Shown: piece by piece, positions 1-28,103 of the stretch | How the letters are laid out: each line of letters starts with the position of its first letter | How positions within the stretch are numbered: the first letter of the stretch is position 1 | Origin: Anaerolineae bacterium | Lineage (GTDB): Bacteria; Chloroflexota; Anaerolineae; B4-G1; SLSP01 | DNA length: 38,584 nt | Assembly: GCA_018055515.1 (NCBI GenBank) | Contig: JAGPHL010000001.1 | Location: forward strand, 1 to 38,584 | Direction: 5' to 3' | Notes under the pieces: generated by a model | What the model was told of the DNA's origin: nothing | Seen by the model: the letters and a program-made list of their open reading frames with translations, nothing else | Database searches by the model: none | Translations under genes and position numbers: made by a program

Positions 1-852
1 CATCACCTCATAGGCATGGAAGGTCTCGGAGAGCAAATGCACCGTCCGGTCCAACAGCTCCCGCAGGTCAGTCGCCAGAGCAATGACGGCGTCGAGTTCC
101 TCCAACATCATCAAATTGCGGGAGAAGTATTCCGCCTCAGCGGTGCGCTCGCGCGCCTGCAATTCCAGCGCCGCCAGGTGACGCTGGAAAGCACTCATGG
201 CCTTTTCAAATTCTGCTCGCGTTGCCGAGAGATGGCCCAAAACGTCTCCCAACAGCGGCATACACATGCCCAACAGCAGCACTACGAACAGGGGAATAGC
301 ACGCCGGACCTCGGCAGCTGCTTCCCCGGGCGGCACATAAACGCCGGCCTCTTCCAAGGCGAAAATCCCCGCCCCCAACAGGATGGCCCCCAGAAACAGG
401 CCGTACGTCACCGTGCGGGAAAGGAAACTCACAGCAATCACCATCGGCCACACGAAAAATACCCACAGGCTGGAGCGCGACCCCCCTCCTGTGAGGATCG
501 CCAGCGCCACCAACACGAAGACGAAGGGCACATAAGCCGCAGCGACAGGACGATAAGTGCCCCGCCTGTTGAAGAACAGCCCCAGACCATGCCCCACCAG
601 GCTCACACCGCCCAAAACAAGCAGCGGCGACGTCAAAGCGTGCATCCCCGCGAAGCACGCCGGCACCACGATCGAGGCAATGCCGCCCATCAGCAACGCA
701 AGGTTGAGGAGCGTCGCCATGCGCACTTCATCGCCGTTGGCGTCCCAAACACGGAGCCACCGCGCCAGCGCGGGTTGGGGATCCGTCTTCTTCCGCCGGG
801 GGAGCTGCACTTCCCGATCTGAGGGTTCCATCGTCACGCCATCCGTCGCCAT
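1..852 (-). CDS. Polytopic-membrane GAF-array sensor, N-terminal part only (gene runs off the left edge)
   Basis: It is absent from the ORF track because no stop lies in the window. The minus-strand ATG at 852-850 has SD GAAGGAG 6 nt upstream and sits 3 nt after the stop of the preceding gene. It opens a frame that stays open to nt 1: MATDGVTMEPSDREVQLPRRKK... The product has five hydrophobic helices (LLNLALLMGGIASIVVPACFAG, YVPFVFVLVALAILTGG, LWVFFVWPMVIAVSFL, YGLFLGAILLGAGIFAL, IPLFVVLLLGMCMPLLG). These are followed by a coiled coil (LAALELQARERTAEAEYF) and a GAF-type first helix (LDAVIALATDLRELLDRTVHLLSETF). The plan matches the genes at 4916 and 10954. Confidence 0.8.
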   Translation of the reverse strand, partial: MATDGVTMEPSDREVQLPRRKKTDPQPALARWLRVWDANGDEVRMATLLNLALLMGGIASIVVPACFAGMHALTSPLLVLGGVSLVGHGLGLFFNRRGTYRPVAAAYVPFVFVLVALAILTGGGSRSSLWVFFVWPMVIAVSFLSRTVTYGLFLGAILLGAGIFALEEAGVYVPPGEAAAEVRRAIPLFVVLLLGMCMPLLGDVLGHLSATRAEFEKAMSAFQRHLAALELQARERTAEAEYFSRNLMMLEELDAVIALATDLRELLDRTVHLLSETFHAYEVM

Positions 853-855
853 GGC

Positions 856-3800
856 CTACTCCTTCACTTCCAGTTCCACGGCCGCCCGACGCACGCCGAG
901 CGCCAGGCTGAGCTCGCGCAAGGCCCGTTCCAACAGCGATTCTACTTCCATTTCAGCGCGCACCCGTCCAGAGATGGCGCCAGCCAGCTGCTCGCGCGCC
1001 GCCCGCGCCCGAGTGTCTTCCAACAAGCGGGCCACCTCGAGCGCCTGCCCCAACCGTGAACCGATTTCTTCGAGGAGGGGGATCGCATCCGCAGCCAGCT
1101 GCTCCCCCCGCGAGCGAATGTTGAGCACGCCAATGACCTGCTCGCGCACACGGATGGGAAGGGCCAGGGTCGTGACCTCTCCCTCAGTTTCCATGCCGGC
1201 GGGAGATGGCTGCCGGTACACTACGGCGCGCCCCTCGCGCCAGGCCTGTTGCGCTTCGGGAGTGCGCTCGGTCGTCATTTCCAGGTCCACGCCGTCGTAG
1301 CGATACGCCCGCAGGCGCCGGGTGCGAGTGAGGTACTCGCGCCAGGAGTCCACCGTGTACGTTCCAATGGCCGCCTCGAGCTGGCGCACATTGCGGTCCG
1401 CTTCCGCCAGCAAGCGCGCGATCTCCAGCGCATTGGCCAGCTGGTCGGCCAGCGTCTGCAACATCGCCACGTCATCCGAACTAAAGCCCTCGGCAGCAAG
1501 GGTATGGATACATAACGCACCCAGCGTCTTTTCACCACGCACGAGGGGGAGGGCAACCTCGGTCACATGCCCATTCCCCTCCGCCGCCGTCAGCAAAGGA
1601 AGACTGACCTCCTCCGACAGCTGCGCCTCGCGCAAGGCCACGCTGCGCGCGGCCGGGCTCTCCCCCCCCAACAGCAATCGCAAGCCGGCCTGCAGATGCT
1701 CCATCGCGCGCTCGCCCACGGCCGCACGCAACAGCAACCAGTGGTGGGACTGTGGGTCATCCTCCGCGCCGGCTTCCTCTTGCAAAAAGAGCGCCACCCC
1801 CGGATAGCCCAGGCGCTCAGAAATTAAGGCAACGGCCTGCGTCAGCAGCTGCGAAACATCCAAAATCGCCGAGAGAGTACGGGAAATCAACGCCGCTTCC
1901 CGCAATTGCACGGCGCGCCGCTGCGCCTCATCCTCCATAGTCTTCAAGCGGGTCACGTTATAGGAGATGCCCACCAGGCCCATGATCTTGCCAGAAGCGT
2001 CGCGCATCGGGATCTTGGTCGCCAGGAACCAACGCGACTGCCCTTCGCGGTTATACATGTGCTCGAGCCGTTGTACGACCGCGACCCCGTCGCGCACGAC
2101 CCGCAGATCGTCTTCCCAGGCCGCCTGCGCACTCGGTCCCACAAAGAAGTCCAGGTCGGTCTTTCCGACAGCCGCTTCTGGATCCTCCACACCCAACGCC
2201 ATAGCCTGGGCCGGGTTGACGCGGGTAAAGCGCAGCTCGCTATCTTTGAAATACACCGAATCGGGGATGTTGTTGAGCAAAGTGCTCTGCTCTACCTCTT
2301 TGCGGGAAATCGTCTCCAGACGCACGCGGTTCTCCAAAGAGACCGCCGCCTGTCCGGCCAGGTTCAGCAGGACCCGCGTTTCCGAGGTGGAAAACTCGCG
2401 CGCCTTGCGATAAGCGGCCACCAACAGGCCCGTCCACTCGCCGCCAACAACCAACGGCACAAGCGCTAACGCTCCAGCCTTGAACCGCTCGCGGAAGAGC
2501 CGCCGCGTGCTGGTGCTCAGCTGGACATCCGCCGCCAGGTTGGGAATCCACAACGGAGCCTCCGGCCGCACCCTCTGGGCAGCATCCGCCAACGCCAGCA
2601 GGTAATGCGCGTCGAAAGCTTCAGGCGGCACTTCATTCGTCCAGCGCGCCAGCGGTGAGAAAGCCGACGGTGGCGCATCCGGCTGCCAGGGCCGGTCGAA
2701 GCGCTCCAGGCTCACGAAGGCGTCCGCATCCCCCAACGACGTGTAACGGCGCAGTACCTCCAGAATGGCCGCATAATCTGGACTGGCGCTGAGCTCGGCC
2801 GTCGCGCGATACAGCAGGTTCACCTCCTCGGCGTTGCGTTGACTCGCCTCGAACAGGCGGGCGTTCTCCAAAGCCACCGCCAGCTGATCGGCGATGATCA
2901 TCATCAAGGTCACGTCTTCCTCGGAGAAAGCCGCCTCGCGGGAGGACTGCACCGTCAATGCGCCGATGACTTGAGCGCCGCGACGCAGGGGGATGGCCAT
3001 TTCGGAGTGTGTGTCGGGCAACAGCGGGTTATCGAAACGTACCGCTTCGGCGCCAACATCGAGTGCGATGCGAGGACGGCCCTCGGCCACACAAACCCCG
3101 ATCATGGAAGTGCCGCCGACCTCCAGGCGATGGCCGGCCTCCAACATGCGGCGGCCCGCCTCACCGGTGCCCGCGCGCAACACCGCCCACCGTCCCTCTG
3201 CATCGGTGAGGAAAGCGCCCACGTAGTAATAATCGAAGCGCTCACGGATCAGTTCGACCGCGCGTTCGAGCAGTTCCTGCGGCTGCAGCAGCGAAGAAGT
3301 TGCCCGCGCCACCTCGGCCGCCGTCTGCAATTGAACCGCGCGCTGTTGCACTTCCTGGAAAAGGCGATTCGCCTCCAGCGCGTTGGCAACCTGCAGGGCA
3401 ATGGTCTGGAGCAGTTCCTGATCGGAGGGCGTGAAGAGATTCTCAAATTCATAGCTCTCGATCGCCATGACCCCCACGACTTTGTTGGCGGTGATGAGCG
3501 GCACGCCCAGCCACGAGAGCGCCTCGTCGCCTACCAGGCTCAGCCCCTGCGAGACCATGAAAGCGCGGTTTTCCTCCAGGTTGGCCAGATGCAGGGGAGT
3601 GCGATTGCGGATGATGTAGCCGGTCAGCCCCTGTTCCAGCTTGTGCTTGCGGGGCGCCTGCAATTGTCCGTGCGCCATCTGGAACGCCAGCGTCCACTCC
3701 TCACGCCCCTCTTCGTATGTAGCGATGAAGAAATCCTGGGTGTCGAAAAGCCGGCTGACCTGTTCATACGCCTCACGCAAAATGGCATCCAGGTCAGGCG

Positions 3801-4908
3801 CCTGCGCAAACGCCTGCTGCAGATCGGCGAGCACCGAGAGCTCTTTGATCCGCTTCTCCCGCTGCTCGAATAGCGTGGCATTCTCGATGGCCATGGCAAT
3901 CTGATCGGCCAGCATTTGCAACGCGGCGATGTCCTCCGTTGCAAACGCCGCCACGCGGTCGGATTGAATCGTCATGGCGCCGAAGATGTGCTGCTCGCGT
4001 CCGATGAGCGGCAAGGCCATCTCCGAATGGGTGTCGGGCAAGAAGGGATTGTCGAAGCGACGCGCTTCCTTGCCGACGTCCAACGCGATCCGCGCCTGTC
4101 CCTCCGCCACACACGCGCCGATCATCGAATGACCACCCACTTCCAGCCGGTGATGGGCCGCCAGCATCTGCGCCCCGGCCTCGCCCGACCCCGCGCGCAG
4201 CTCCGCCCATTTCCCGCTTCGATCCAGCAGGAACAGGCCCGCGTAGTACAGGCCGAACCGCTCCTGGATGGCGTCCACCACGCGCGGGAACATCTCCTCC
4301 AGCGAGAGGATCGAGCTGATGAGGCGCGTGACGTCTGCCCCCGCCGCCAACAGCTCCGCCTTGTGTTGCGCCTGCGCCAACAGCCGGGCGTTATGGATGG
4401 CCGCCGCGGCCTGTTCCGCCAGGGCCTCGATGAGGGCGATGTCCTCGGCCGTGAAATCGGGCTGCGACATGGTATTGACAGCGCTCAGGATTCCCAGGAC
4501 CTGCGCCTCGCGCACGATGGGCGCCACCAACAGCGAACCAATCCCCATCTCGGTGCGACGCCGCCGCACGTCCGGGGATTCACGCGGGTCGCCAATGACC
4601 ATGGCTTTGGCAGAAAATGCGATCTGGCGCTCCCGAATGGCCCAGCCGGCAAGCCCCTCGTTCAGCTCCGCGAAGCTGATGGGCACGATGGGCTCAGGGT
4701 CCGCGCCCGCCTTGGCCATGTGGGTGATGCGCTCAGCCTGCATGTCCACCGCAAAGAGCAACACCCGCTGCGCCCGCAACACTTCCGCCGCCCCATTGAC
4801 GATGGTTTGGAAGACTTCCTGGAGGTCGTGCTGGGCGATCACAGCGCGCGCGGCGCGATACAATACCTCTACATGGGCAGCCTGAGTTATCGCTTCGTCA
4901 CTCATCAT
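856..4908 (-). CDS. Soluble giant multi-GAF/PAS protein of the array (about 1350 aa), no output domain seen
   Basis: The ORF track gives 856..4974. I trimmed the start to ATG 4908 (MMSDEAIT) because TAAGGTGAAA (SD GGTGA) lies directly upstream and 4916-4918 is the upstream gene's stop. There is no TM segment. I count six to seven GAF-like blocks. Two are copies of the family GAF (RFGLYYAGLFLLD..LPDTHSEMALPL and RFDYYYVGAFLTD..LPDTHSEMAIPL). One clear block is of the SWLGVPL type. One PAS lies at nt ~1945-2280 (NNIPDSVYFKD..GLVGISYNVTRLK). The protein ends with the W-module (TVDSWREYL..LALPIRVREQVIGVLNIRS) and the family tail (EQLAGAISGRVRAEMEVESLLERALRELSLALGVRRAAVELEVKE). Confidence 0.9.
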   Translation of the reverse strand: MMSDEAITQAAHVEVLYRAARAVIAQHDLQEVFQTIVNGAAEVLRAQRVLLFAVDMQAERITHMAKAGADPEPIVPISFAELNEGLAGWAIRERQIAFSAKAMVIGDPRESPDVRRRRTEMGIGSLLVAPIVREAQVLGILSAVNTMSQPDFTAEDIALIEALAEQAAAAIHNARLLAQAQHKAELLAAGADVTRLISSILSLEEMFPRVVDAIQERFGLYYAGLFLLDRSGKWAELRAGSGEAGAQMLAAHHRLEVGGHSMIGACVAEGQARIALDVGKEARRFDNPFLPDTHSEMALPLIGREQHIFGAMTIQSDRVAAFATEDIAALQMLADQIAMAIENATLFEQREKRIKELSVLADLQQAFAQAPDLDAILREAYEQVSRLFDTQDFFIATYEEGREEWTLAFQMAHGQLQAPRKHKLEQGLTGYIIRNRTPLHLANLEENRAFMVSQGLSLVGDEALSWLGVPLITANKVVGVMAIESYEFENLFTPSDQELLQTIALQVANALEANRLFQEVQQRAVQLQTAAEVARATSSLLQPQELLERAVELIRERFDYYYVGAFLTDAEGRWAVLRAGTGEAGRRMLEAGHRLEVGGTSMIGVCVAEGRPRIALDVGAEAVRFDNPLLPDTHSEMAIPLRRGAQVIGALTVQSSREAAFSEEDVTLMMIIADQLAVALENARLFEASQRNAEEVNLLYRATAELSASPDYAAILEVLRRYTSLGDADAFVSLERFDRPWQPDAPPSAFSPLARWTNEVPPEAFDAHYLLALADAAQRVRPEAPLWIPNLAADVQLSTSTRRLFRERFKAGALALVPLVVGGEWTGLLVAAYRKAREFSTSETRVLLNLAGQAAVSLENRVRLETISRKEVEQSTLLNNIPDSVYFKDSELRFTRVNPAQAMALGVEDPEAAVGKTDLDFFVGPSAQAAWEDDLRVVRDGVAVVQRLEHMYNREGQSRWFLATKIPMRDASGKIMGLVGISYNVTRLKTMEDEAQRRAVQLREAALISRTLSAILDVSQLLTQAVALISERLGYPGVALFLQEEAGAEDDPQSHHWLLLRAAVGERAMEHLQAGLRLLLGGESPAARSVALREAQLSEEVSLPLLTAAEGNGHVTEVALPLVRGEKTLGALCIHTLAAEGFSSDDVAMLQTLADQLANALEIARLLAEADRNVRQLEAAIGTYTVDSWREYLTRTRRLRAYRYDGVDLEMTTERTPEAQQAWREGRAVVYRQPSPAGMETEGEVTTLALPIRVREQVIGVLNIRSRGEQLAADAIPLLEEIGSRLGQALEVARLLEDTRARAAREQLAGAISGRVRAEMEVESLLERALRELSLALGVRRAAVELEVKE

Positions 4909-4915: not shown

Positions 4916-6334
4916 TTATGCTGCGTCAGGCATCTCTTCAGCGCCAGTGGCAGGAGCGGTTGCGGGAGTCTCACCGGCGGCAGTCACCGGTTCAAGGAAG
5001 ACGGCCACCTCATCGAGATCCAAAATGCGCCCCAAATCCATGATGGCTTGCTGTAGCAACGCATCCACATCAAAGGAACGGCTGAAACGCCCGGAAAGGT
5101 CACCCAACACTTGCTGCCGCTGCGCCTGACGTTGGGTTTCCTCAACGAGGCGCAACGTCTCCAAAGTCTGACCTAGCTGATCCATGACCGACTCCACCAG
5201 CGCCAGGTCCTCCGCCGTCCAGGGGCTGCCATCGGTGCGCCGGGCGCTCAAGGCGCCGATGACCTCGTCGCGCACGGCGATGGGGACGGCAAGCTCGCCT
5301 CCCTCTACCACCGTACGTCGGCCCTGAGTCGCCTTCAGCATGGGCGGATTCCAGGCGGGAGATACTGCCTGGACCTCGCCGCCGCGGGCGTAGAAACCAC
5401 GACGCCCCGACCCAGACTCCAGGAACATCGTCCACGCTTCGCGAAGATAACGCTGCTGCACGGCGCGCAATTCATTCAGGGCAGTAATCAACGTCTCCAC
5501 CGTTCGGTTCAGCCGGCTGCCCAGCGCCAGCAATGCGGGATTCTCGATCCGCTTTGCCAGGTCCTCCATGTCCAGGCGCGCCTCGAAGTCGCCCTCTTCG
5601 ACGCGACTCAAAAAGGTGGTATACTCCTGGACGCTTGCCTGAAGCTGCTCCAGCGTCTCCTGGACCTGTTGGCGGGCCTCAACCTCGGCCTGAGCGGCGG
5701 TCTCGGCGCGTTCCAGGGCCTCAGAGAGCTCCTCACCGCGCCGATAGGCCGAGGCCAAGCTATCCTCGATGAGCCGGACAAAAACGGTCAGCAAGGCCAC
5801 CATACTCCCCAAAGAAAGGAGCATGATGCCGAGCGTCAACACCCGTTCGGCGGATGCAGACAGTGAGTAAGGAATCGCAATGCCACGCCCCTGCAACACC
5901 AGCCACACGGCCATTAGCACTACCACGCCCAGGGTCGAACCCAACGCCGCCCCGGGACCGCTTATCAATGCACTAATGACGATGAGAGGCGCAAAAGCCA
6001 GGGTAATAGGGCCCAGAGGGCCGCCCATGTAGTAACAAAGCGTCAGGAGGGTCAGACCACCGCCAATAAGGTAGGCCCTGGCCCCCCACTCCGTAGCGCC
6101 CCGGCGCAGGAGTCCCTGCACCAGCAACAACACCGCCGCATACCCGGCCAGGGATAGCACCACCGGCAGCGTCGGGAAATCCAGCACCAGGCGCCGGGCC
6201 CAAACGGCAAGCAAGAGCCCCGCTCCTAGCGCGTAGAGGGTCACGCGCGTCACAGCCGCTAACGTCTGGGCCTTGCGCGCCGCCGTCTGTTCCACCACCG
6301 CCGGCAATTTCGTGGGAGCGCCGAGACGTATCAT
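4916..6334 (-). CDS. Minimal array member: polytopic membrane domain, coiled coil and C-terminal W-module/tail, no canonical GAF
   Basis: ATGA overlaps the upstream gene at 6331-6334. The product has 5-6 hydrophobic helices, for example LYALGAGLLLAVWA and VLTLGIMLLSLGSMVALLTVFV. A long coiled coil follows (AETAAQAEVEARQQVQETLEQLQ). Then come the W-module (QRYLREAWTMF..LAVPIAVRDEVIGALSARRTDGSPWTAEDLALVESVMDQLGQTLETLRLVEE) and the tail (QQVLGDLSGRFSRSFDVDALLQQAIMDLGRILDLDEVAVFLEP). Confidence 0.88.
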   Translation of the reverse strand: MIRLGAPTKLPAVVEQTAARKAQTLAAVTRVTLYALGAGLLLAVWARRLVLDFPTLPVVLSLAGYAAVLLLVQGLLRRGATEWGARAYLIGGGLTLLTLCYYMGGPLGPITLAFAPLIVISALISGPGAALGSTLGVVVLMAVWLVLQGRGIAIPYSLSASAERVLTLGIMLLSLGSMVALLTVFVRLIEDSLASAYRRGEELSEALERAETAAQAEVEARQQVQETLEQLQASVQEYTTFLSRVEEGDFEARLDMEDLAKRIENPALLALGSRLNRTVETLITALNELRAVQQRYLREAWTMFLESGSGRRGFYARGGEVQAVSPAWNPPMLKATQGRRTVVEGGELAVPIAVRDEVIGALSARRTDGSPWTAEDLALVESVMDQLGQTLETLRLVEETQRQAQRQQVLGDLSGRFSRSFDVDALLQQAIMDLGRILDLDEVAVFLEPVTAAGETPATAPATGAEEMPDAA

Positions 6335-8574
6335 GCCTCCTCCTCCAACGTGTCAGACCCCTGACCTAGTTGCGCTCGCAGCTCCGCCGCTCCAAGCGCT
6401 TGACTCATGTCGCTCACAGCACGCTGCAACGCCTGTTCCACCGACGCGGCAGCCCGAATGTTGTCCACGATCTGGCGCACCAGGCGTTCGCGTTCGCTCC
6501 GGCGCAGGGTCTCCTCGAAGAGCCGCGCGTTATCCAGGGCCAACGCCGCCTGGGTCGCCAGGGCCTGCACGAGCTCCAATTCCTCCGGCGTCCAGGGGCG
6601 ATCGGCCGGCCGTTCCAATTCCAGCGTCGCCAGCACCTGATCGCGCAAGGTGATTTCTGCAGCAATGCGCTGGCCTTCGGGAGACGCGGGAGCTGCTGCC
6701 GGAGCAAGGGACGTCACCACCCCCTGTCCCTCGTAATGATACGCGAGCGGCGTGCGTCGGCGGCGCTCCGCCCAGGCTCTGCGCGTCTCCTCCCCAAGGG
6801 CGCGTTCCATGCGGGCCAGCGCCTCCTGGCTCTCCCTGAACAGCCGGGCGTTGTCCAATGCCAGCGCCAGCTGCTCCGCCATCGTCTGCAACACCGTCAC
6901 GTCCTCTTGCGTGAACGCCTCCGGCTCCGTGGATTGCACATCCAGGACGCCGATGACCTCACCGCGCGCCCGAAGGGGGAGCCCCATCTCCGAGCGGGTC
7001 TCTGGCAGATCGGGGTTGTTGAACCACACCGCGTCAGCGCCCACATCCAGGGCGATGCGAGGATGACCGGTCGCCAGAACCGCGCCGACAATCCCCACGC
7101 CGGCCTGGAGACGATGACCGCGCGCTAACATGCGCTTTCCACCTTCAGACGAAGCGGCGCGCAATTCGGCGTAGGTGCCATCGGGGCTGGCCACGAAAAT
7201 TCCTGCATGGTAGAAGCCAAAATGCTCCGAAATCAAGTTCACCATGGAGTCAAGCAGCTGTTCCTCGTCGCGGATTGAAGCCACATCACGCGCGACCTCC
7301 GCCGCCGCTTGCAGCTGTTGCGTACGCTTCCTTAAGTCGCGGGTGCGTTCAGCGACGCGCTCCTCCAGGGAGGCCCGCGTTTCTAGCAGCTCGGTATTGC
7401 TCACCCGCAACGCCGCTTCGATGCGGCGACGCCGCGCTGCGCTAAGGGATTGGGCCACGATGGTGACCAGCAACACCAGCCCCACCGCCGATACAGGCCA
7501 GATGATCTCGCCGTATTCCTCCAGGAAAGTGAGAGGGCGGTTGATCACCTCGCTATTCACCGGCAGCGTGCCCATGTCAATGCCAAAACGTTGTAACTGC
7601 CGATAGTCGAACATGTAGCGATTGGGGCTTTCCCACGCAATGGGGACATCGGCCGCCGAGGCCCCCGCCAGAAGCTGCTGGACCTTGAACGCTGCCGCCT
7701 CCCCCTGCAGGAAAGCGCTCGTCAATTTTCCCCCCACCAAACCGCGCCCCAGATAGGAATCCCACAGGCCATAAATCGGCGCCTTGGTATTGGCGTAGAT
7801 CAAGTCAATGGCTTCCTCGTAGGTGTAGAAATGCTGAGCGCGGTCACGGTTGAACAAGACCAGGAAGACCAGGTCGTCTTCGGTCAAAGCGCGCAACGCC
7901 GCTTCCAGCTCGGGCACGTCGGGATTCTCGTAATACACGAAGCTGACGCGATTCGCATAGCTCGCCGCGATCTCGTGAAACAGGCGCGAATACGCCACGC
8001 CTGTCGTCGTGCCGTCGTTGATGACGAGGATCTCGCGCGTCTGCGGGCGCTGCGCCAACGCCACGTCAAGTGTGGCCTTGATGTCTACCGTCATCACCAC
8101 GCCGGTGAAATACGCCCGAAGCCCTCCCAGCATCGTGTCCTCGAAGAGATTGACGCCGCAGAACACCACCGGCACTTCGGGGAAGAGGCGTTCATGGTAC
8201 TCCACCATGAAGTTGAAGGCCTCGTCATCGGTCACGACGATGGCGTCGAGGGGAATGGCGGCATATTTCTGCCGATAGAGTTCGTACAGACGCTCGAAAT
8301 ACGCGGCATCGGGAACGACGCGCTTGGCGTCCATGTATTCCAGGTATAACTCGACCGGCTGAGTCTCCGTATCCAGCACCGACTTGATTCCCTGTACCAG
8401 ATGATCGGTCCAGCTCAATCCCTGGTGATAGGAATTCAACACCAGGACGTTCTTGCGCGGCGCCTCCGTCGCCGTCTGTGCGGCGACGGGCCGATCTGGC
8501 CGAAGCCAGCCCACGCTCAACAAGCACAGCGCCAACAGCACCGCTCGAACCCGGAAACGAGGCTTATCTGCCAT
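6331..8574 (-). CDS. Array sensor: periplasmic-binding-protein-like domain, TM, signalling helix, GAF (FYH subtype), W-module, tail
   Basis: SD AGGAGA lies 7 nt upstream of ATG 8574. The product has an N-terminal signal anchor (AVLLALCLLSVGWL). The PBP-like extracytoplasmic sensor is marked by KNVLVLNSYHQGLSWTD. The TM is IIWPVSAVGLVLLVTIVAQSL and the signalling helix is LEERVAERTRDLRKRTQQL. The GAF reads HFGFYHAGIFV..LRAASSEGGKRML..WFNNPDLPETRSEMGLPL. The W-module is TRRAWAER..WTPEELELVQALATQAALALDNARLF and the tail is ERLVRQIVDNIRAAASVEQALQRAVSDMSQALGAAELRAQL. Confidence 0.9.
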   Translation of the reverse strand: MADKPRFRVRAVLLALCLLSVGWLRPDRPVAAQTATEAPRKNVLVLNSYHQGLSWTDHLVQGIKSVLDTETQPVELYLEYMDAKRVVPDAAYFERLYELYRQKYAAIPLDAIVVTDDEAFNFMVEYHERLFPEVPVVFCGVNLFEDTMLGGLRAYFTGVVMTVDIKATLDVALAQRPQTREILVINDGTTTGVAYSRLFHEIAASYANRVSFVYYENPDVPELEAALRALTEDDLVFLVLFNRDRAQHFYTYEEAIDLIYANTKAPIYGLWDSYLGRGLVGGKLTSAFLQGEAAAFKVQQLLAGASAADVPIAWESPNRYMFDYRQLQRFGIDMGTLPVNSEVINRPLTFLEEYGEIIWPVSAVGLVLLVTIVAQSLSAARRRRIEAALRVSNTELLETRASLEERVAERTRDLRKRTQQLQAAAEVARDVASIRDEEQLLDSMVNLISEHFGFYHAGIFVASPDGTYAELRAASSEGGKRMLARGHRLQAGVGIVGAVLATGHPRIALDVGADAVWFNNPDLPETRSEMGLPLRARGEVIGVLDVQSTEPEAFTQEDVTVLQTMAEQLALALDNARLFRESQEALARMERALGEETRRAWAERRRRTPLAYHYEGQGVVTSLAPAAAPASPEGQRIAAEITLRDQVLATLELERPADRPWTPEELELVQALATQAALALDNARLFEETLRRSERERLVRQIVDNIRAAASVEQALQRAVSDMSQALGAAELRAQLGQGSDTLEEEA

Positions 8575-21000: not shown

Positions 21001-21248
21001 AACGTCCCGCTGATGATCAAGCCATCAAATTTCTCGGGCCCGATCAGGTCGAAGACGACCGTCTGAGGAACGTTCCAACGCAGCTCGCCGCCCACCAGGC
21101 AAATGAGATTGACGTCCAGGGCCGCCGCGGCATCTGCTACCCCCAACAGGAAACCGTTCTCATAGCCATCGCGCAGCCAGGTGACCAACAGTCCAATCGT
21201 AGGGCGGGACGTTTGCTCGCGGATTTTATGCGTGTCCTGTGCTTCCAT
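18078..21248 (-). CDS. Soluble array member: LacI/RbsB-type ligand-binding domain without an HTH, unassigned region, internal W-module, GAF (LYY subtype), second W-module, tail
   Basis: SD GAGGA lies 7 nt upstream of ATG 21248. There is no TM segment. The PBP type-1 pattern is IGLLVTWLRDGYENGF..HGYRRIAFIQGP..VVSANDDMAFGAFDVLQAHGLRVPEDVALVGFDD, with no preceding helix-turn-helix. The internal W-module is QRQYIREAWRS..LGAPLMLYGEIVGLMGLERQGAQPWTEAEIALVEGLLEQAARAVETRRL. The GAF reads RFGYYYVGLFLVE..LRAGTGEAGQLML..RFDNPLLPETRSEAAVPL. The second W-module begins TQESWREYL and the tail is ERLISETTARIREQLDMDAVLQAAVHELQQVLGLERVELRVGTP. Confidence 0.88.
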   Translation of the reverse strand: MEAQDTHKIREQTSRPTIGLLVTWLRDGYENGFLLGVADAAAALDVNLICLVGGELRWNVPQTVVFDLIGPEKFDGLIISGTLGHALAAEDLARFCARFAPLPMVGGALPLPGVVQVLPDSLSGMREAVEHLITVHGYRRIAFIQGPAGQLEAEERYRAYTEVLLRHGLPLDPALVVRGDYRRVTGQAAMEELLARGAPLEAVVSANDDMAFGAFDVLQAHGLRVPEDVALVGFDDVDAAPFLEAPLTTVRQSFTDAARIATETVLALIRGGPVPDIIHIPTQLVLRRSCGCQLEVVEQAAAPVSAVPELPVAWETLSAPVNVPAPVWQAFREDVASGTSSRFLTACTQALRSIQAAAQPAEVVPVAEVAAWHTTLSALRRAALPHLVDRAQLLHAENLLQQARVLVSAEVQRLEGYRQLALKRQETRIQEFDRALMAVLSLSELQPPVEHYFPALGIRHAYMTLYPAENEPAEHLHLAFSYEHEHGAHAWEPPIAFPARQLLPEGMGLEQQRYTAVLVPLLTRNTSLGVMLLELGPRDGAIYDRLGEQFSGSIYRMSLLQHQAEVQAALEASRQEAETALRDLLALQRQYIREAWRSADVSGATHSYSAAGAEAPPWLPAMTAALAEARSVQQPTDSGYSLGAPLMLYGEIVGLMGLERQGAQPWTEAEIALVEGLLEQAARAVETRRLVAETRYRAAQLRTATEIAQITSSILSLQELITQAVNLLEERFGYYYVGLFLVEETGRWAVLRAGTGEAGQLMLERGHKLEVGGASMIGQCILENQARIALDVGAEAVRFDNPLLPETRSEAAVPLRSRGRAIGAMTLQSVEPAAFSEEDLAVLQTVADQLGNAIETARLLDEMERTVRALEAAQGRYTQESWREYLETIGKTIGYRYRLGLEPAPALSPEEQTALAEQQPVITRYGLPAESAATPEAAHAVIALPLRLREQTIGVLDVRFEAEEVPPETLELLEQIAEQVTLSLESARLYQATQQQAAQERLISETTARIREQLDMDAVLQAAVHELQQVLGLERVELRVGTPPALEEVQQVTAGD

Positions 21249-21257: not shown

Positions 21258-22520
21258 TCACTCCAATGCCGCTGCGGATGTTTCCTGCGCGAGCGCCGCC
21301 AGCTGTTCGCGCGTTCCCAAGCGCGTGACTGCCGTCGTCGCGCCCATCAAGCGTCCCACTTCTTCCGTCACAATGCGCAGCACGGCTTGAATGTCTGCCG
21401 CGCCAATGATTTGCTCCGTAATCACGCGGACCCGCTGTTCCTGCAGCGCTTGCTGCTGCAACTGCTCGAAAAGCCGGGCGTTGTAGATCGCGTTGGCGAC
21501 GGGAACCGCCACAGCCTGAATCAATGCCAGATCGTGCTCGTCGAAAACGTAGGATTGGGTGTAGCTCTCAATCGCTAACACTCCCACTACCTGATTCAAC
21601 GCGATCAAAGGGGTACCCAACCAGGAATTTGCCTGCTGTCCCAGGTGCTCAAAACCGTGCTCACGACAGAAAGCCAGTTCTTCTTCGGCGGTGCGGAACA
21701 GCAGCGACCGGCGTTCGCGGATCATGTATCCCGTCAACCCCTCGTTCAACGGATATTCCCGGCCCACCAAACGCTCACCTTCTTGCACATCGAAAGCCGA
21801 AGACCAAATGCCGCGTTCCTCATCCACCACGGCGATGTAGAAACTGGAGACATCGAAGAGCCGTCCCAGCTGCATGTGAGCAGTATGGAATACCTCCTCC
21901 AGATCGTGGGTCACGGCCAGCGCCTGGCCGATCTCGTTGAGGACCAACATCTCCTGCATCCGGCGCGCCTGTTGCGCCGAGAGCCGTGCGTTTTCGAGGG
22001 CAGCCGCCGCCTGATTGGCAACGGTCATCAGCAGATCGCGCTCCCGTTCGCCATAGAGCCCCGGCGTGGTGTAACTCTGCACCGTCATCACGCCGATCAC
22101 GCGATCGCCTATCATCAAGGGCACTCCCAGCCAGGATTTCGCCCCCGTAATCCCCAGGATCCGCACTCCCAATTCGGTGATGCGCTCCATGGAGCTTTCT
22201 TCCAACAACAGCGGCGCCCGCGTCTGGATGACATATTCGGTCAGGCCGCCGCTCATCTTGCGGTAAGTGCGCTCGCCGCGCTCCACCCGTTGGCCCTCCG
22301 TCACGTCCAGGCAGAAAAAGAGCTCTTGCTTGAGTTCGTCATACAGGGCGATGTAGAAGTTCGTCGTGTCCATCAAGCGCGAGACGGCGCGATACACGCC
22401 CTCGACCACCTCTTCCATGCCCAGGCCGGCAGCAGTCAACGCCGCCATTTCCTGGATGACCGAAAGCGCTGTGCCCGCTGTCGTGTCGATCGAGCGCAGT
22501 TCGAACTCCTGTTCCATCAT
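21258..22520 (-). CDS. Soluble array member: two GAF domains plus family tail
   Basis: ATGA overlaps the upstream gene at 22517-22520. There is no TM segment. The two GAFs are of the SWLG[VT]PL type: KSWLGVPLMIGDRVIGVMTVQSY and NSWLGTPLIALNQVVGVLAIESY. The tail is EQRVRVITEQIIGAADIQAVLRIVTEEVGRLMGATTAVTRLGT. Confidence 0.9.
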   Translation of the reverse strand: MMEQEFELRSIDTTAGTALSVIQEMAALTAAGLGMEEVVEGVYRAVSRLMDTTNFYIALYDELKQELFFCLDVTEGQRVERGERTYRKMSGGLTEYVIQTRAPLLLEESSMERITELGVRILGITGAKSWLGVPLMIGDRVIGVMTVQSYTTPGLYGERERDLLMTVANQAAAALENARLSAQQARRMQEMLVLNEIGQALAVTHDLEEVFHTAHMQLGRLFDVSSFYIAVVDEERGIWSSAFDVQEGERLVGREYPLNEGLTGYMIRERRSLLFRTAEEELAFCREHGFEHLGQQANSWLGTPLIALNQVVGVLAIESYTQSYVFDEHDLALIQAVAVPVANAIYNARLFEQLQQQALQEQRVRVITEQIIGAADIQAVLRIVTEEVGRLMGATTAVTRLGTREQLAALAQETSAAALE

Positions 22521-24454
22521 GAGCTCACCTCCTCAGCCGCAGGCGCAACGGCGTCCGGCAACGTCACATGGACCGTGGCCTCGGCTACGCCAGGCAAACG
22601 TCCCAATTGCGCCACAGCCGTCTGCAACACCGTCGTCACGTCAAGCGAGCGCCGCAGCTGCGAGGCAATCTCGCCGGCCAGACGCTCCTGGCTCGCGCGA
22701 CGCTGCGTTTCCTGATGCAAACGCGCACTCTCCAACGCCTGCGCCAGCTCCTGAGCCGTCCGCGCGGCGAAGGAAATTTCCTCACTCGTCCAGGGCCGAT
22801 CAAGAGGACGGCGTACCTGCAACACGGCAAGTTCCAGCCCGGCAATCGTCACCGGCACCAACAGGGTGTTGTCTGTCAGCACTCGAGGCGCGGTCAGTGG
22901 CGCCGCAGGGACGCCCTCCCCACCCTTGTCCAACGCCTCCAGAGTCCGCGGCGTGTAACGATAGCCGCGCAGGCTGAGTTGTGTCATGAAATCTGACCAA
23001 CCGCGATGCAAGTCCTGGGCATAAGCACGCTGCAGCTCGCGCATGGCCTCCTGACGCTGAGCAAAAACCAGCGCGTTGGCAATGGCCACGGCGAGCTGAT
23101 CCGCCAGGATGGCCAGGGTACGGATATCCTCAGGGCGGAAGGCGCCCACGTCGCGGCTCTGCACGTCCAGAGCGCCGATCACCTGCCCACCAACAATCAA
23201 AGGCAACGCCATTTCGGAATGCGTCTCAGGCAGATCGGGGTTATCGAACCACACCATGTCCTCGCCAACATCCAGCGCGATACGCGGTCGTCCCGTCTGC
23301 GTGACGTAGCCCACGATGCCCTGCGCCCCGACCGCCAGCCGATGTCCGCGCGCCAACATCCGCTGCCCGCCTTCCGAGGAGGCAGCGCGCAACACCGCCC
23401 ACTCACGGCTCTCGTCCAGCAGAAAAATGCCGGCATGGTAGAAGCCAAACTGCTCCGGGATGAGCCGCACCGCTTGCCACAGCAGCTCGTCCAGGTCAAG
23501 GAGCGAAGCGGCGACGCGGCTGACTTCCCCCGTCGCCCGCAGGTAGGCCGCCTGACGTTCCAGATCGGCCGTGCGCGCCGCAATACGTTCCTCCAACGTG
23601 GCCACTAACTCACGCAGCTGCCGGGTCATCACATTAAAAGCATCCGCCAGCTGCGCCGCTTCTGCTTCGGGAGGCAAGGGGATCTCAAAATTCAAATCGC
23701 CGCCTGCGACCCGTTCAACTGCAGTGACCAGCGCGCCAAGATACGTCGTCAGATTGCGGCCCAATAGCCAGCCGCCGCCGGCAGCGAGCGGCGCCGCGAT
23801 CAGCAAAGCCAGCGCGCCCAGCCGTAGAAAGGCGGATTCCTGACCGCGCACGTTGGCGGCATCCAAATCCACGCACAAGATGCCCACCAGTGTGCCATCG
23901 GCGGTACGCAGCGGGGCATACGCCGAAAGCCAGGTCCCCCACTGATCCACATAGAAGTCCTCTTCGACCGCAGGGCCAGCCAGCGAACCGACCACTTGTC
24001 GCAAGAGCGGGCCGGCATCGTCATACACGCTGCCGGGCAAAGACACCTCTTCAGCCGATTCCTCGGCATCCGCCACAAAGTAAATCTTGCCATCCGCTCC
24101 CTGATGGACGATGTAGACAAAGCGCGCGTCGGTGATGCGGTCCCGCACCGCCCGCAGCTGCGCAACGACGGACTCATACAGCGGGCCGGTTTGCGGTTCA
24201 GCCGCGACCAGGCGTGCCACGGTCTCCACGTCCACGCTCAGCGCGGCGAGAGCCACCTCATCCCGAAGCCGCCCGCGGATTTCCCGGCTCAGATACGGGC
24301 CCACGGCAAAGCGTGCGACCCCCACGATGAAGCCCACCAGCAGCAACAAACTCCAGGCCGCAAAACCGACGGCGGCCCGCGTGCGCAAGCGGGGGCGCAC
24401 TTCGGGCTCTGGGGTCTGATCGCGCGACGGCGCGAAATCCGGCTTCACGCTCAT
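22517..24454 (-). CDS. Array sensor: single Cache/PDC-like domain, TM, HAMP, GAF (FYH subtype), W-module, tail
   Basis: ATGA overlaps the upstream gene at 24451-24454. The first TM is AAWSLLLLVGFIVGV. The Cache-like block is ARFVYIVHQGADGKIYFVADAEE..DQWGTWLSAYAPLRTADGTLVGILCVDLDA. A second TM precedes the HAMP (YLGALVTAVERVAGGDLNFEIPLPPEAEAAQLADAFNVM). The GAF reads QFGFYHAGIFLLD..LRAASSEGGQRML..WFDNPDLPETHSEMALPL. The W-module begins HRGWSDFM and the tail is ERLAGEIASQLRRSLDVTTVLQTAVAQLGRLPGVAEATVHVTLP. Confidence 0.9.
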   Translation of the reverse strand: MSVKPDFAPSRDQTPEPEVRPRLRTRAAVGFAAWSLLLLVGFIVGVARFAVGPYLSREIRGRLRDEVALAALSVDVETVARLVAAEPQTGPLYESVVAQLRAVRDRITDARFVYIVHQGADGKIYFVADAEESAEEVSLPGSVYDDAGPLLRQVVGSLAGPAVEEDFYVDQWGTWLSAYAPLRTADGTLVGILCVDLDAANVRGQESAFLRLGALALLIAAPLAAGGGWLLGRNLTTYLGALVTAVERVAGGDLNFEIPLPPEAEAAQLADAFNVMTRQLRELVATLEERIAARTADLERQAAYLRATGEVSRVAASLLDLDELLWQAVRLIPEQFGFYHAGIFLLDESREWAVLRAASSEGGQRMLARGHRLAVGAQGIVGYVTQTGRPRIALDVGEDMVWFDNPDLPETHSEMALPLIVGGQVIGALDVQSRDVGAFRPEDIRTLAILADQLAVAIANALVFAQRQEAMRELQRAYAQDLHRGWSDFMTQLSLRGYRYTPRTLEALDKGGEGVPAAPLTAPRVLTDNTLLVPVTIAGLELAVLQVRRPLDRPWTSEEISFAARTAQELAQALESARLHQETQRRASQERLAGEIASQLRRSLDVTTVLQTAVAQLGRLPGVAEATVHVTLPDAVAPAAEEVSS

Positions 24455-26181
24455 GCCTCTTCCTCCCCCTGCGCCAGCGGCGGCAAAGGCCCGGTGCCGG
24501 GCAACGCACTCGCCGGTGATGGCGACGGCGTGAGGGTCAACACCACCTCGCTCGCATCCAACGCCGCGCCCAGCTCGCCCACGCCATGACGCATGATCGT
24601 CTCCACATCAAAACTGGACCACATCAAATTCGCGACGTGCGTCAGCTGCTCCTGATACAACGCTTTACGTCGGCTATCACGCAGCAGGCGCACCGTGTCG
24701 AAAGCGCTTGCCAGCCGTTCGACCGCCGTCGTCGCCAGCAACAGCGTGTCCGCGTCCCAGGGTAGCGCCAGCTTGTCGCCCTGCGTCTTGCGGGTGAAGG
24801 CCACGTACCCCAACGTCGTCTCGCGCCAGATGAGGGGCGCGATCAACACCCATCCCCCTTCCCCCGCGGTGAGTTCTACGACGCGCGGTTGCCCCTCGGC
24901 CAGGGCCTCCGCCGCCAGCGCCTGGATGTTTGCCGGCGGCGCTTCACCCGCCTGAATCTCACGCACGCCCCCCTCGGCGTCCAACAGCGAGCGCCAGGAA
25001 GTGCCGGCCACCTGCGCATACAACGTGCGGAGTTCCCGGGCGCGCCCGGCGGTCTCGTCCAACAAGCGCAAAATGTTCAACGTCGCGGCCACCTGATCGG
25101 CGAGAATGCGGAAGAGGCGCACGTCTTCATCGGAAAAGGGCTCGCCGCTGCCGTAGATTCCCAGGACTCCCAGCAGTTCGCCGCCGAACAACAAGGGCAG
25201 CGCCGCTTCGGCACTGCGCAAGGGGAAACGCTCATCACCGACAGGGATAGCGGTTTCGGCCCTTCCCAGCTGCGCCACCCGCCCCGGCAACGAGTCCCCG
25301 CCGACGGGGAGTACCCACCCGGCGTCCACCAGGGCCTGTCCCTGCGCGCCTGCCGCCGCGACGAGCTCCAGACGCTCACCCCGGCTATCTACGAGGAAGC
25401 AATTGGCCTGATAAAGTTCAAAGGTCCGCACCAATTCTTGCACGAGCAGTTGCAGCAGTTCTTCTCGATTGCGGATACGCCCCAAGGTGCGCGCCAGGAG
25501 CGCCACCTGGTCCAGACGGGTCGCCTCGCGGCGCGCCCGCTGCGCGTCCTCCTGCGCTTGCAGCTGCAAACGGCGGGCGAGATCTGCATTGCGCTGCAAT
25601 TCCTCCATGGAACGGAACAGGAATTTCCGATACTCGTTGATGATCAGTCCCAGGACCAGCGTCACGGCGAAGGGCACAAAGAACTCCATCCCCCACGACC
25701 CCAGATCAGCGGGGTTTTGGGCTTGCAGGGGAAGCAACCGCCCGCGGGAGTAATTCCAGGCAATCACGGCGTAGCTGCCAATCGCCAGCGCCCCCCAAAG
25801 TCCCAACCCCTGGGGTCCCAGCAGCAAGGTCGCCAGCAGCGGCACCAACACCAGCAAGAGCCGTCCGGCACCCACCAGGCCGTTCTGCGCCAGAATGTAC
25901 ACGCCGATCAGCAACAGCAACAGCAAGACGACGTTGATGCGCAGCAGAGGGGGCAAGCCTTTGATAAAAGCCAGCGCCGCCAACACTCCGAACAATATCA
26001 GGATAATGGGGACTTGCCAGTAAAAGCCGCGACTGATGACGGCAGGAATCCAGAAAAAGAGCACCGCCACGCCGATGGCGACGGAAAACTGCAGCAACCG
26101 TTCAAGCAGCCAGTTGCGGAATTGCGCTTCCTGTTCCGCGAGCGCGTTCCCTAGTGGAGCGCCAGGTGTGCGTGATTTCAT
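24451..26181 (-). CDS. Array sensor: polytopic membrane domain, divergent GAF, W-module, tail
   Basis: ATGA overlaps the upstream gene at 26178-26181. The product has about 6 hydrophobic helices and a coiled coil (LQLQAQEDAQRARREA). The divergent GAF reads FELYQANCFLVDSRGERLELVAAAG..RSAEAALPLLFGGELLGVLGIYG. The W-module is AGTSWRSLL..VLIAPLIWRETTLGYVAF..WDADTLLLATTAVERLASAFDTVRLL and the tail is QEQLTHVANLMWSSFDVETIMRHGVGELGAALDASEVVLTLTP. Confidence 0.88.
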   Translation of the reverse strand: MKSRTPGAPLGNALAEQEAQFRNWLLERLLQFSVAIGVAVLFFWIPAVISRGFYWQVPIILILFGVLAALAFIKGLPPLLRINVVLLLLLLIGVYILAQNGLVGAGRLLLVLVPLLATLLLGPQGLGLWGALAIGSYAVIAWNYSRGRLLPLQAQNPADLGSWGMEFFVPFAVTLVLGLIINEYRKFLFRSMEELQRNADLARRLQLQAQEDAQRARREATRLDQVALLARTLGRIRNREELLQLLVQELVRTFELYQANCFLVDSRGERLELVAAAGAQGQALVDAGWVLPVGGDSLPGRVAQLGRAETAIPVGDERFPLRSAEAALPLLFGGELLGVLGIYGSGEPFSDEDVRLFRILADQVAATLNILRLLDETAGRARELRTLYAQVAGTSWRSLLDAEGGVREIQAGEAPPANIQALAAEALAEGQPRVVELTAGEGGWVLIAPLIWRETTLGYVAFTRKTQGDKLALPWDADTLLLATTAVERLASAFDTVRLLRDSRRKALYQEQLTHVANLMWSSFDVETIMRHGVGELGAALDASEVVLTLTPSPSPASALPGTGPLPPLAQGEEEA

Positions 26182-28103
26182 AGTTCCTCCTCCACCGGAG
26201 CGGCCGGAGGCGTCAGATTGACCAGGACGCCATCCACATCCACCAGCGTCTGCAATGCCCGCGCCGCTTTGGAAGCCAACATCGGCAGGTCAAAGATGTC
26301 CGCCAGCTGGTCCGAGAAGCCGCGCAACTGCTGTTCCATTTCCACCCGCTGTCGAGCGGAGCGCACCATCCGCAAGCGCTGTAAGGCGGCGCTTGCCAGT
26401 TCCAGCAGCTGTTCGTACAGCAGGGCTTCAGTCGGTTCGAAGGGATGCAAGGTGTTGAAGAGGACCCCCAGAATGCCAAGCAGGCGCCCCTCCTCGTGAA
26501 AAGGCACCCAGGCCAGGCTCCGCAATTGCCCCTGCGTCGCCAGGCGCGCCAGGGCGTTGAGATCGTCGGTCTTCCACCCCGACGCTTCAGGCGCGGCGAC
26601 ATCAGTGACCAGCAGCGGCTTCTCCGCCTGCAAGACTCCCGGGATCAACGCCTCCTCCGCAAACCAGCGCGCCCAGGGGAACTGCAGGCCAGGGAAACGG
26701 AGGTGTTCGCCGCGGAGCTCCGCCGTCAGCGTCGCGTAAGCGCCGTCCTCAGACGGAATCAGGAGAAAAGCCCGGTGGGGGAAAGTCTCCTGCACGGTCT
26801 CCAGAATGGCGGCGTAGACTTCCTCCTCGGTGCGGGCCTGGGCAAAACGCTGCACTAATCTGTAGAAGGGACTGGTGGCCTCCAGAATCGCGGCCTGATC
26901 GCGCACACGGGAGGCATTGGCGAGCGCCGTCGCCAGCAGCCCCGCCGCCAAATCCAGCACCTGCAGCTCATCCACGTCGAAGAAATCAGCCTCGAGGCTC
27001 TGTAAATCCAACACCCCCAGCGTGCGCTCGCCGTGCCGCAAGGGCAGCAAGGCCATCGAACGCGCCTCCCGTAAACGCCAGGGCTCCAGGGGATCATGGG
27101 CAGCGAAAATCCGCGAACGTCCCTGCTGCCACACTTCCCCCAGAAGCGTGCCGCGCACGGGCATCCGGAAGGCCTCCTGCATCAGACGCCGGCCCGCCTC
27201 CGACGAAGACGCCCGCAGGACTAACGCCTGGCCCTCCTCGTCCGGCAGATAAAGGCCGACGTGATGCAGCTCAAAAATCCTGGCGCAGACCTCGACGGCG
27301 CGGCTCAATAAGGGCACCAGATCGAGCAAGGAGCTCGTCTCAGAGGCAAAATCCAGGGCGCCTTCGAGCAGAAAGACACGCCGCTGCAGAGCGTAATTCA
27401 CCTGCTGGAGGTTTTGCGAACGGGCATTGACCTCAGCCTTTTCGCGCTCCACTGCGGCCACCCGCTCACGCACCGCGGTCATCGCGGCGGTGAAACGGGG
27501 CACGAGATAACGCTGGATCACGATGAGCATGGTGCTGAGCAACGCCAGCGAGACGATGTCGCTCACCAACGAGACCGGCACCGGGCCGACGAGCATGGGA
27601 TCGTTGAGCGGCGGCAACGGCCAGACTCCCCTCACCCCCAACATGCCCACCGTGAGAAGTGTGAGGCTGCTCAATGCCAGCGCTGCAAAACCCTGCGGGA
27701 CGCCGTAGAACAGGGAGGTCAGCAACGCCAACGCCATGAAGAACAGGCGGGCGTCTTCCTTCCAGCCAAAAACCAGCAGGTCCGCTAGACCCAGCACGTA
27801 GAGCAGCAGCAAAATCCCCCCTACCTGGAGGGCATAGGGCACTTTGCGCCAGAAGACCAGGACCAACACCAACAGGTAAGCCACACCATAGGCGACTATC
27901 AGGGTGAAATACCCCCGCAAATAAACGCCATAAGCGCTGAAGGCCAGCGCCAGCGGGCCGACGATCGCAGCGGCCACCAACAGGCCGTGCGCCAACTGCG
28001 CTCGCCAGCGTTGGACTTCCTGCAAGGTAACTTCCGCAATGGCTACCTGCGAGTTCTCCGCATCCTCCTGCGGTCGCGATTTTAGCTGTTCCCCACTCTG
28101 CAT
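26178..28103 (-). CDS. First gene of the array: polytopic membrane domain, two GAF-like domains, tail
   Basis: I trimmed the ORF-track GTG 28160 to ATG 28103 (MQSGEQLK), which has SD AAGGAG 5 nt upstream. The product has about 6-7 hydrophobic helices and a coiled coil. The first GAF reads IFELHHVGLYLPDEEGQALVLRASSSEAGRRLM..ARSMALLPLRHGERTLGVLDLQS. The second GAF-like block is RSLAWVPFHEEGRLLGILGVLF. The tail is EQQLRGFSDQLADIFDLPMLASKAARALQTLVDVDGVLVNLTP. Confidence 0.85.
   Translation of the reverse strand: MQSGEQLKSRPQEDAENSQVAIAEVTLQEVQRWRAQLAHGLLVAAAIVGPLALAFSAYGVYLRGYFTLIVAYGVAYLLVLVLVFWRKVPYALQVGGILLLLYVLGLADLLVFGWKEDARLFFMALALLTSLFYGVPQGFAALALSSLTLLTVGMLGVRGVWPLPPLNDPMLVGPVPVSLVSDIVSLALLSTMLIVIQRYLVPRFTAAMTAVRERVAAVEREKAEVNARSQNLQQVNYALQRRVFLLEGALDFASETSSLLDLVPLLSRAVEVCARIFELHHVGLYLPDEEGQALVLRASSSEAGRRLMQEAFRMPVRGTLLGEVWQQGRSRIFAAHDPLEPWRLREARSMALLPLRHGERTLGVLDLQSLEADFFDVDELQVLDLAAGLLATALANASRVRDQAAILEATSPFYRLVQRFAQARTEEEVYAAILETVQETFPHRAFLLIPSEDGAYATLTAELRGEHLRFPGLQFPWARWFAEEALIPGVLQAEKPLLVTDVAAPEASGWKTDDLNALARLATQGQLRSLAWVPFHEEGRLLGILGVLFNTLHPFEPTEALLYEQLLELASAALQRLRMVRSARQRVEMEQQLRGFSDQLADIFDLPMLASKAARALQTLVDVDGVLVNLTPPAAPVEEEL

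Follow-up and report, generated by a model that had tools for sequence, protein, structure and literature searches.

Two-component signalling is usually drawn with one sensor kinase for each signal. The locus described here lies in a 38,584 nt stretch of DNA from an Anaerolineae bacterium (contig JAGPHL010000001.1 of GenBank assembly GCA_018055515.1, positions 1 to 38,584; hereafter the window), where positions 1-28103 hold an array of large paralogous GAF-domain sensors that carry no output domain of their own. Accessory proteins controlling histidine kinases are a recognised class (PMC12691602, PMC4160245), and in the QseG-QseE, CpxP-CpxA, LiaF-LiaS, LuxP-LuxQ and TorT-TorS systems extra sensing proteins modulate the kinase. 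There, one or two proteins unrelated to the kinase are involved, whereas the array is a large paralogous family derived from kinases. The NreA-NreB-NreC system of Staphylococcus carnosus offers a second precedent, NreA being a GAF-only protein, an output-less GAF-fold nitrate receptor that is encoded with the kinase NreB and binds and switches it (PMC12423327). The array likewise consists of output-less sensors encoded with a histidine kinase; the likeness is one of description, and binding to the kinase is what we propose for the array. NreA is a single soluble GAF of ~150 aa with one ligand, whereas the array has some 15 paralogs that are large, mostly membrane-bound and equipped with separate inputs, tandem GAF domains and a conserved helical stalk. 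We tentatively read these proteins as kinase-less co-sensors of a multi-input two-component phosphorelay that would pass their signals to the kinases on either side by way of the conserved GAF stalk, a reading that we consider quite possible and that suggests accessory-sensor two-component signalling in a previously undescribed form.

Methyl-accepting chemoreceptors resemble the array in their logic: a variable sensor, periplasmic or in the membrane, is followed by transmembrane (TM) segments, HAMP and a cytoplasmic part that is long and helical, and numerous paralogs converge on a kinase, as is proposed for the array. This parallel had been drawn in the preliminary description of the window, made by a model from the sequence; it holds for the combination of variable sensor and constant module and fails for homology, as the array has no chemoreceptor signalling hairpin. 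MCPsignal, methylation helices and genes for CheA, CheW, CheR and CheB are all missing, and the cytoplasmic module is built of GAFs. In the stressosome, RsbR paralogs combine variable N-terminal sensors with a constant STAS C-terminus that co-assembles and controls the serine kinase RsbT. They share with the array the presence of several paralogs with variable sensors and a constant C-terminal domain, but STAS and a serine kinase are used there, and GAFs, a stalk and histidine kinases are found here.

The array is uninterrupted and encoded head to tail on the minus strand, and comprises 13 paralogs (g00 to g07 and g09 to g13, with g00 partial) and one lipoprotein solute-binding protein (SBP; g08). 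The layout of open reading frames (ORFs) agrees in all these respects with what was first described. Five junctions are ATGA stop/start overlaps, exactly at the positions given initially (6331, 12663, 22517, 24451 and 26178). The remaining gaps, reported as 3-88 nt each with a Shine-Dalgarno (SD) site, are 3, 7, 9, 12, 38, 53, 55 and 88 nt, and an SD site of the GGAG/GAGG type is found 5-12 nt 5′ of every start. The coding density is 99%, and the products, estimated earlier at roughly 9,000 aa, total 8,933 aa. A convincing internal terminator had not been recognised by eye, and terminator-like matches within the array are not above those in shuffled sequence and all fall inside coding sequence; the predicted folding of the four larger intergenic gaps is not stronger than that of their shuffles. 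Operon structure is assigned here from gene spacing only. Searches of the array and of the spacer 5′ of its first gene (28104-28615) against Rfam at the gathering threshold revealed no riboswitch or other RNA element.

Domains were assigned using Pfam and NCBIfam, and membrane topologies using hydropathy. The 13 paralogs contain GAF, HAMP, PAS, Cache, four-helix-bundle (TarH), MASE11 and periplasmic-binding-protein (PBP) domains only, and 12 of the 12 complete paralogs match GAF profiles (PF01590/PF13185/PF13492; E = 1e-8 to 1e-94). Neither HisKA nor HATPase_c is matched by any array product in Pfam, and no conserved His is seen in the C-terminal tail. GGDEF, EAL, HD-GYP, cyclase, SpoIIE/PP2C, AAA+ and helix-turn-helix (HTH) domains are also absent from the array products (Pfam, E ≤ 0.01), as is STAS from all products of the window. 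MCPsignal (PF00015) does not appear in the Pfam results, and NCBIfam chemoreceptor models touch the HAMP region only, far below cutoff. NCBIfam matches to NifA, NorR, FhlA, PtsP, MadS and others span only the GAF parts and are also far below their cutoffs. A kinase or receiver (REC) domain hidden in another frame or by a frameshift was ruled out, as tblastn with the core of the neighbouring kinase and with a REC domain found no match in any frame of 1-28110. That no product has a recognisable output is upheld by the Pfam and NCBIfam results, by tblastn and hhalign, and by two AlphaFold models, and profile searches that could have assigned the constant C-terminus to an enzymatic or DNA-binding output assigned none. 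What was described as an output-less array is output-less for each product and not for the operon, which has kinase and receiver domains at both ends.

Alignment of the C-terminal 400 aa revealed a shared module that consists, in order, of a signalling helix (S-helix) carrying an ERT motif, GAF-A (RAGTGEAG...FDNPxLPETRSE.ALPL), a linker helix (ERRAYG..T.EAW), a short GAF-B and a conserved tail (ALESARLY..TQRRA..ERL..EI...IR..LD.E..L..A..EL...LG.....V.L.). Together with the topologies, it confirms the division into a variable sensor and a constant cytoplasmic module noted at the outset. AlphaFold2 models were obtained for the 365-aa constant module of g05 (pLDDT 86) and, from a deeper alignment, for its C-terminal 177 aa (pLDDT 82). 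GAF-A is canonical, and a helix of ~50 residues leads from it to a compact, four-stranded GAF-B. In both models, α5 of GAF-B runs on as one helix of ~65 residues, the stalk, and no structure is predicted for the last ~20 residues. Foldseek searches against the PDB returned GAF and tandem-GAF proteins only, including PDE2A, CyaB2, phytochromes and fRMsr. Tandem-GAF modules such as those of PDE2A, CyaB2 and phytochrome GAF-PHY similarly place two GAFs on a long helix as a signal-transmitting rod; there a catalytic domain follows covalently, whereas the array chains stop after α1-β1 of a next GAF.

That ending is supported by two alignments. The tail aligns to the linker, α1 and β1 of GAF-A (hhalign probability 83%, E = 1e-5), and its segment of the hidden Markov model recurs wherever two GAFs join in poly-GAF proteins, supporting an assignment of the stalk as the orphan α1-β1 of a next GAF carried on a long helix. 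An element of this type would be a new kind of transmitter. The possibility that the tail is a degenerate dimerisation and histidine phosphotransfer (DHp) domain was ruled out, as the hhalign match between the tail and the DHp of the local kinases is confined to 21 columns of GAF α5. A circularly permuted or split GAF, with α1-β1 folding back on GAF-B, was ruled out for the monomer by both models, and g10 and g13, which retain the tail after a complete second GAF, also count against it. Information content across 300 members is 2.6 bits per column in α5, 2.4 in the tail and 1.6 in the GAF-B core; the stalk is therefore the most constrained part of the family. Conservation of this kind at a constant C-terminus would be expected of a surface for shared interactions.

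Kinases flank the array on both sides. Upstream are three genes on the same strand: REC1 (31445-31888) and REC2 (31036-31458, start codon approximate), which encode single-domain response regulators, and HK-A (28616-31051), which encodes an 811-aa sensor histidine kinase with an ectodomain, HAMP, GAF, HisKA and HATPase (Pfam). HK-A and g07 are 32% identical over 299 aa spanning TM2, HAMP, S-helix and GAF (E = 1e-31), and HK-A also resembles g11 by its ectodomain. Beyond α5 of the GAF, the place of GAF-B and the stalk is taken in HK-A by the kinase core. By these alignments, HK-A is a paralog of the HAMP-type array members.

The downstream end was read from contigs that encode exactly the g01 protein of the window and from close relatives of these. 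The array had been suspected to continue past the left edge, and near-identical contigs show that it does. The genes beyond the edge, all in the same direction, are the remainder of g00 (582 aa in full), a 586-aa member, a free SBP (ABC_sub_bind, 345-352 aa), a 1492-aa HAMP/poly-GAF member ending in the stalk, and HK2164 (P0090), a cytoplasmic hybrid kinase of 2164 aa that contains around ten GAFs, a PAS, HisKA and HATPase, and two RECs. A small ferredoxin gene follows, and then genes on the opposite strand. The gene order is the same in a relative with 67-76% identity. The gene of the free ABC_sub_bind SBP appears as two called ORFs, of 206 and 175 aa, in one metagenome-assembled genome (MAG) from the same species group (L085:3984-5233), possibly through a frameshift or an assembly error. 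g01 and HK2164 share 52% identity over 337 aa with PAS at the same position, and g01 is on this evidence a kinase-less paralog of HK2164. The full unit is REC-REC-HK, a spacer, 15 sensor-only proteins and two SBPs, and a poly-GAF hybrid kinase. The co-directionality given in the preliminary description stands, and its size of fourteen genes and >28 kb does not; the co-directional block 3′ of the spacer contains ~18 genes in ~45 kb.

Relatives were sought in a scan of one genome per species, using a narrower alignment than the full 23-sequence one, which had no sufficiently conserved stretch. At least 327 stretches encoding the family were found, and the best 77 loci (L numbers) were analysed. 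Every related sequence comes from a MAG or a metagenome contig, and the best 77 loci are all in MAGs of Chloroflexota (Anaerolineae, Anaerolineales, Thermoflexales/Thermoflexia, some labelled Chloroflexia). They contain 392 tail-bearing ORFs in ~75 loci, with the end of the tail within 30 residues of the C-terminus in ~340 of the 392, and a typical 20-kb locus holds 5-10 members head to tail. An exhaustive profile search gave 10,741 clusters at E ≤ 1e-30; poly-GAF giants predominate among them, and the count measures the GAF subtype in general, poly-GAF kinases included, not the sensor-only family. Database names for family members are just "GAF domain-containing protein", and no description of the family, of GAF-protein arrays in Anaerolineae or of MASE11-GAF function was found in the full-text literature.

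The paralogs of the window each have their own ortholog at 62-77% identity, with the order kept, in L002, L023, L041 and L021. Paralogs compared with one another are ~35% identical in the constant module, and repeats at the DNA level are merely 60-80% identical. Recent tandem amplification is ruled out by these values, and the array is therefore old, with each receptor kept individually.

Profile searching for the family, with a record of the genes that co-occur, had been suggested as a check, and returned kinases or REC genes at the array ends and SBPs and ParA-like ATPases inside. Where the head of an array is visible it is REC-REC-HK, REC-REC or REC (L013, L033, L043, L064, L068, L070, L040, L055 and L075); orthologs of REC2 head arrays in 13 loci, and those of REC1 head arrays in other MAGs with E down to 1e-55. 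The visible ends in L040, L050, L063, L067 and L075 are occupied by poly-GAF (hybrid) kinases. The bracketing seen in the present lineage, REC-REC-HK upstream and HK2164 downstream, is similar in other MAGs, the upstream REC-REC-HK being present in L013, L033, L043, L064, L068 and L070, and kinases or REC genes are the neighbours that recur most regularly where array ends are visible. Free SBPs of the NMT1, ABC_sub_bind, Peripla_BP_4/5/6 and SBP_bac_1/8/11 families are interspersed in the arrays without transporter genes. A threonine-synthase-like pyridoxal-phosphate (PLP) enzyme follows the terminal kinase in four of five loci (L040, L050, L063 and L075; not L067). It is complete with a C-terminal REC in L040:13871-15658, L063:17480-19180 and L075:17197-18948, and the L050 copy is at 9529-10023. 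The enzyme scores below the ThrC equivalog cutoff, and an N-terminal zinc-ribbon-like DUF7129 is present in L063 and L075. This ThrC-like-REC protein is an unusual enzyme-type response regulator. It was looked for as the output gene at the array end of the present lineage and is absent; the hybrid kinase and the small ferredoxin end the operon.

As the array lies in a two-component operon and both kinases are paralogs of its members, a cis-encoded kinase is the likely common partner. In the scheme that we propose, each paralog would sense its own signal by its own N-terminal module, be it a fused PBP, double Cache, four-helix bundle, MASE-type membrane domain, PAS/poly-GAF or cytoplasmic LacI-type PBP, and free lipoprotein SBPs may help some members. 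The signal would pass through HAMP or the S-helix to the GAF-A/GAF-B rod and on to the helical stalk, which is predicted to have no catalytic or DNA-binding activity. Stalk and GAF surfaces would then dock onto the like GAFs of the kinases of the operon, HK-A and, above all, HK2164 with its tandem GAFs. Docking would shift the balance of kinase and phosphatase activity toward the receivers, which are the two upstream CheY-like RECs and the two fused to HK2164.

Several points weigh against this scheme. Docking, the direction in which control would run and the eventual output in the cell are all inferences, and the AlphaFold2 models cover monomers and are silent on dimers and complexes. The operon of this lineage contains no DNA-binding or enzymatic response regulator. 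Related arrays include other partners, and the stalk could address a ParA-like, SpoIIAA-like or ThrC-like-REC partner and not a kinase. Lastly, HK-A and the array are separated by a hairpin-rich spacer of 512 nt (28104-28615; minimum free energy -103 kcal/mol, z = -8.7), which makes their co-transcription in this genome doubtful; as three very stable hairpins intervene, HK-A may be transcribed separately.

The hairpins, at about 28259-28398 within 28255-28400, are tandem, GC-rich and perfect, with A-runs between them in the minus-strand reading. In the plus-strand reading they have the form of canonical terminators, a hairpin followed by a T-run, and no plus-strand gene that they could terminate is evident. 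They may be a mobile palindromic element, a site of RNA processing or stabilisation, or a barrier to antisense transcription. In the related L013 and L033, the kinase directly abuts the first array member. A short tandem repeat of GTGCGAAGGT / GTGAAGGT units is found at 28560-28600, just 3′ of the kinase stop codon.

A more elaborate arrangement, which we regard as somewhat unlikely, is that the ~15 kinase-less receptors of an operon dock side by side, each by its orphan α1-β1 stalk, on a giant poly-GAF hybrid kinase whose tandem GAFs serve as a scaffold. With ParA-like positioning and a threonine-synthase-like-REC output in some lineages, such an assembly would be the histidine-kinase counterpart of chemoreceptor arrays or stressosomes and specific to filamentous Anaerolineae.

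Receptors could also cluster through GAF/stalk contacts in a lattice that is independent of kinases and follows the logic of a chemoreceptor array or stressosome, with output to ParA/MinD-like or STAS-like partners or in response to a common small ligand in an invariant GAF-A. ParC/PpfA-positioned chemoreceptor clusters use ParA-like ATPases, and genes for such P-loop ATPases are embedded in the arrays of 16 related loci (e.g. L033:10747-11508, L026:13391-14146 and L019:13779-14558), often overlapping the adjacent receptor genes at their start and stop codons. Pairs of genes for SpoIIAA-like proteins of ~120 aa (PF11964, STAS fold) border arrays in six loci (including L006:19377-20149, L008:17868-18589, L010:15756-16498 and L059:12076-12794). 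The strong conservation of GAF-A among paralogs whose input domains are unrelated would also be expected if it bound a common ligand. However, neither the ParA-like nor the SpoIIAA-like genes, nor the ThrC-like-REC gene, are present in the window or its extension, and it is kinases or RECs that adjoin the visible array ends most regularly. A lattice of this kind is accordingly judged unlikely.

Members might instead form mixed dimers with kinase protomers, giving half-kinases governed by a sensor-only partner, with the stalk merely capping the dimer. HK-A is paralogous to g07 and g11, and HK2164 to g01, over exactly the dimer-forming helices and GAFs, and all of these proteins are encoded in one operon with translational coupling. 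Identity across the shared chassis is just 25-35%, however, which is low for specific pairing with 15 partners, and capping leaves the conservation of the tail, the best-conserved segment, unexplained; we consider such decoys quite unlikely. That the array consists of decaying remnants, truncated histidine kinases that have lost the catalytic core and any present function, is highly improbable, for although the proteins stop inside a GAF, after β1, in a truncation-like manner, the many tail-bearing ORFs of related loci are intact and share this end point, orthologs are well conserved in unchanged order with the tail conserved most, and the genes have a high coding density, SD sites and coupled stops.

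The individual members, all on the minus strand, differ mainly in what precedes the constant module. The first gene of the array, g13 (26178-28103), encodes a 641-aa protein with MASE11, a GAF, a complete second GAF and the stalk, and g12 (24451-26181; 576 aa) has a MASE11 membrane domain and the constant module. In g11 (22517-24454; 645 aa), an ectodomain of ~160 aa akin to that of the upstream kinase is followed by HAMP and the constant module. g10 (21258-22520) and g09 (18078-21248) predict soluble proteins, the former of 420 aa with two complete GAF domains and then the stalk, the latter of 1056 aa with a LacI-type Peripla_BP_3 domain that lacks an HTH, a partial GAF, GAF-A, GAF-B and the stalk.

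g08 (17043-18065) predicts a free solute-binding lipoprotein of the NMT1/SsuA type (Pfam NMT1, E = 6e-54; NCBIfam SsuA_fam weak) with the lipobox LSAC, and its orthologs are located inside arrays in 14 loci. It is presumed to be a sensory SBP because ABC transporter genes are absent nearby. SBP co-sensors are known from LuxP and TorT, and free SBPs without transporter genes, such as g08 and the downstream 345-aa SBP, fit this pattern. In the spacer between g08 and g07 (16990-17042), an 18-nt unit, AAGTAGGYGTTGAGGWCT, is repeated three times in tandem and makes up the whole spacer, with an SD-like GAGG in each copy.

HAMP and the constant module are also found in g07 (15127-16989; 620 aa), with a four-helix-bundle (TarH/NarX-like) ectodomain, and in g06 (12663-15071; 802 aa), with a Cache_3-Cache_2 ectodomain (E = 2e-87). 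g05 (10954-12666; 570 aa), the protein behind both structure models, has four TM segments and then the constant module. In g03 (6331-8574; 747 aa) an extracytoplasmic PBP (ABC_sub_bind) precedes one TM segment, the S-helix, GAF-A, GAF-B and the stalk. g04 (8663-10915; 750 aa) has the same architecture, its ATG start matches the gene call in L078, and the N-terminal domains of g03 and g04 are 43% identical. g02 (4916-6334; 472 aa) has five TM segments, a coiled coil, and GAF-B with the stalk, and lacks GAF-A. g01 (856-4908) predicts a soluble protein of 1350 aa with five GAFs, PAS, GAF, GAF-B and the stalk (Pfam). The part of g00 in the window (1-852) encodes a polytopic membrane N-terminus, the S-helix and the start of GAF-A, its full length being known from near-identical contigs (L079/L084).

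On the right flank, positions 32113-37563 of the same strand carry ordinary genes of the purine-catabolism type, for a three-subunit molybdoenzyme of the xanthine-dehydrogenase/aldehyde-oxidase type (molybdenum cofactor subunit, 32113-34494; [2Fe-2S] subunit, 34631-35149; FAD subunit, 35197-36114) and a xanthine/uracil permease (36175-37563). At the right edge of the window is a gene of the 23S rRNA-intervening-sequence family, which encodes a four-helix-bundle protein (38155-38571).

In these arrays, sensing appears to be split from phosphorylation on a large scale, with dozens of individually conserved receptors, whose inputs are of the PBP, Cache, four-helix-bundle, MASE, PAS and LacI types, built on one non-catalytic GAF-stalk module. 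A few kinases enclose them in operons that reach ~45 kb. If the receptors converge on kinases, the arrangement would be a compact means of integrating many signals, and a function would be provided for thousands of Chloroflexota entries named "GAF domain-containing protein". Anaerolineae are abundant in digesters, sediments and activated sludge, and their physiology is poorly understood. If our reading is correct they would become more tractable, as each input domain would hint at what the cell monitors.

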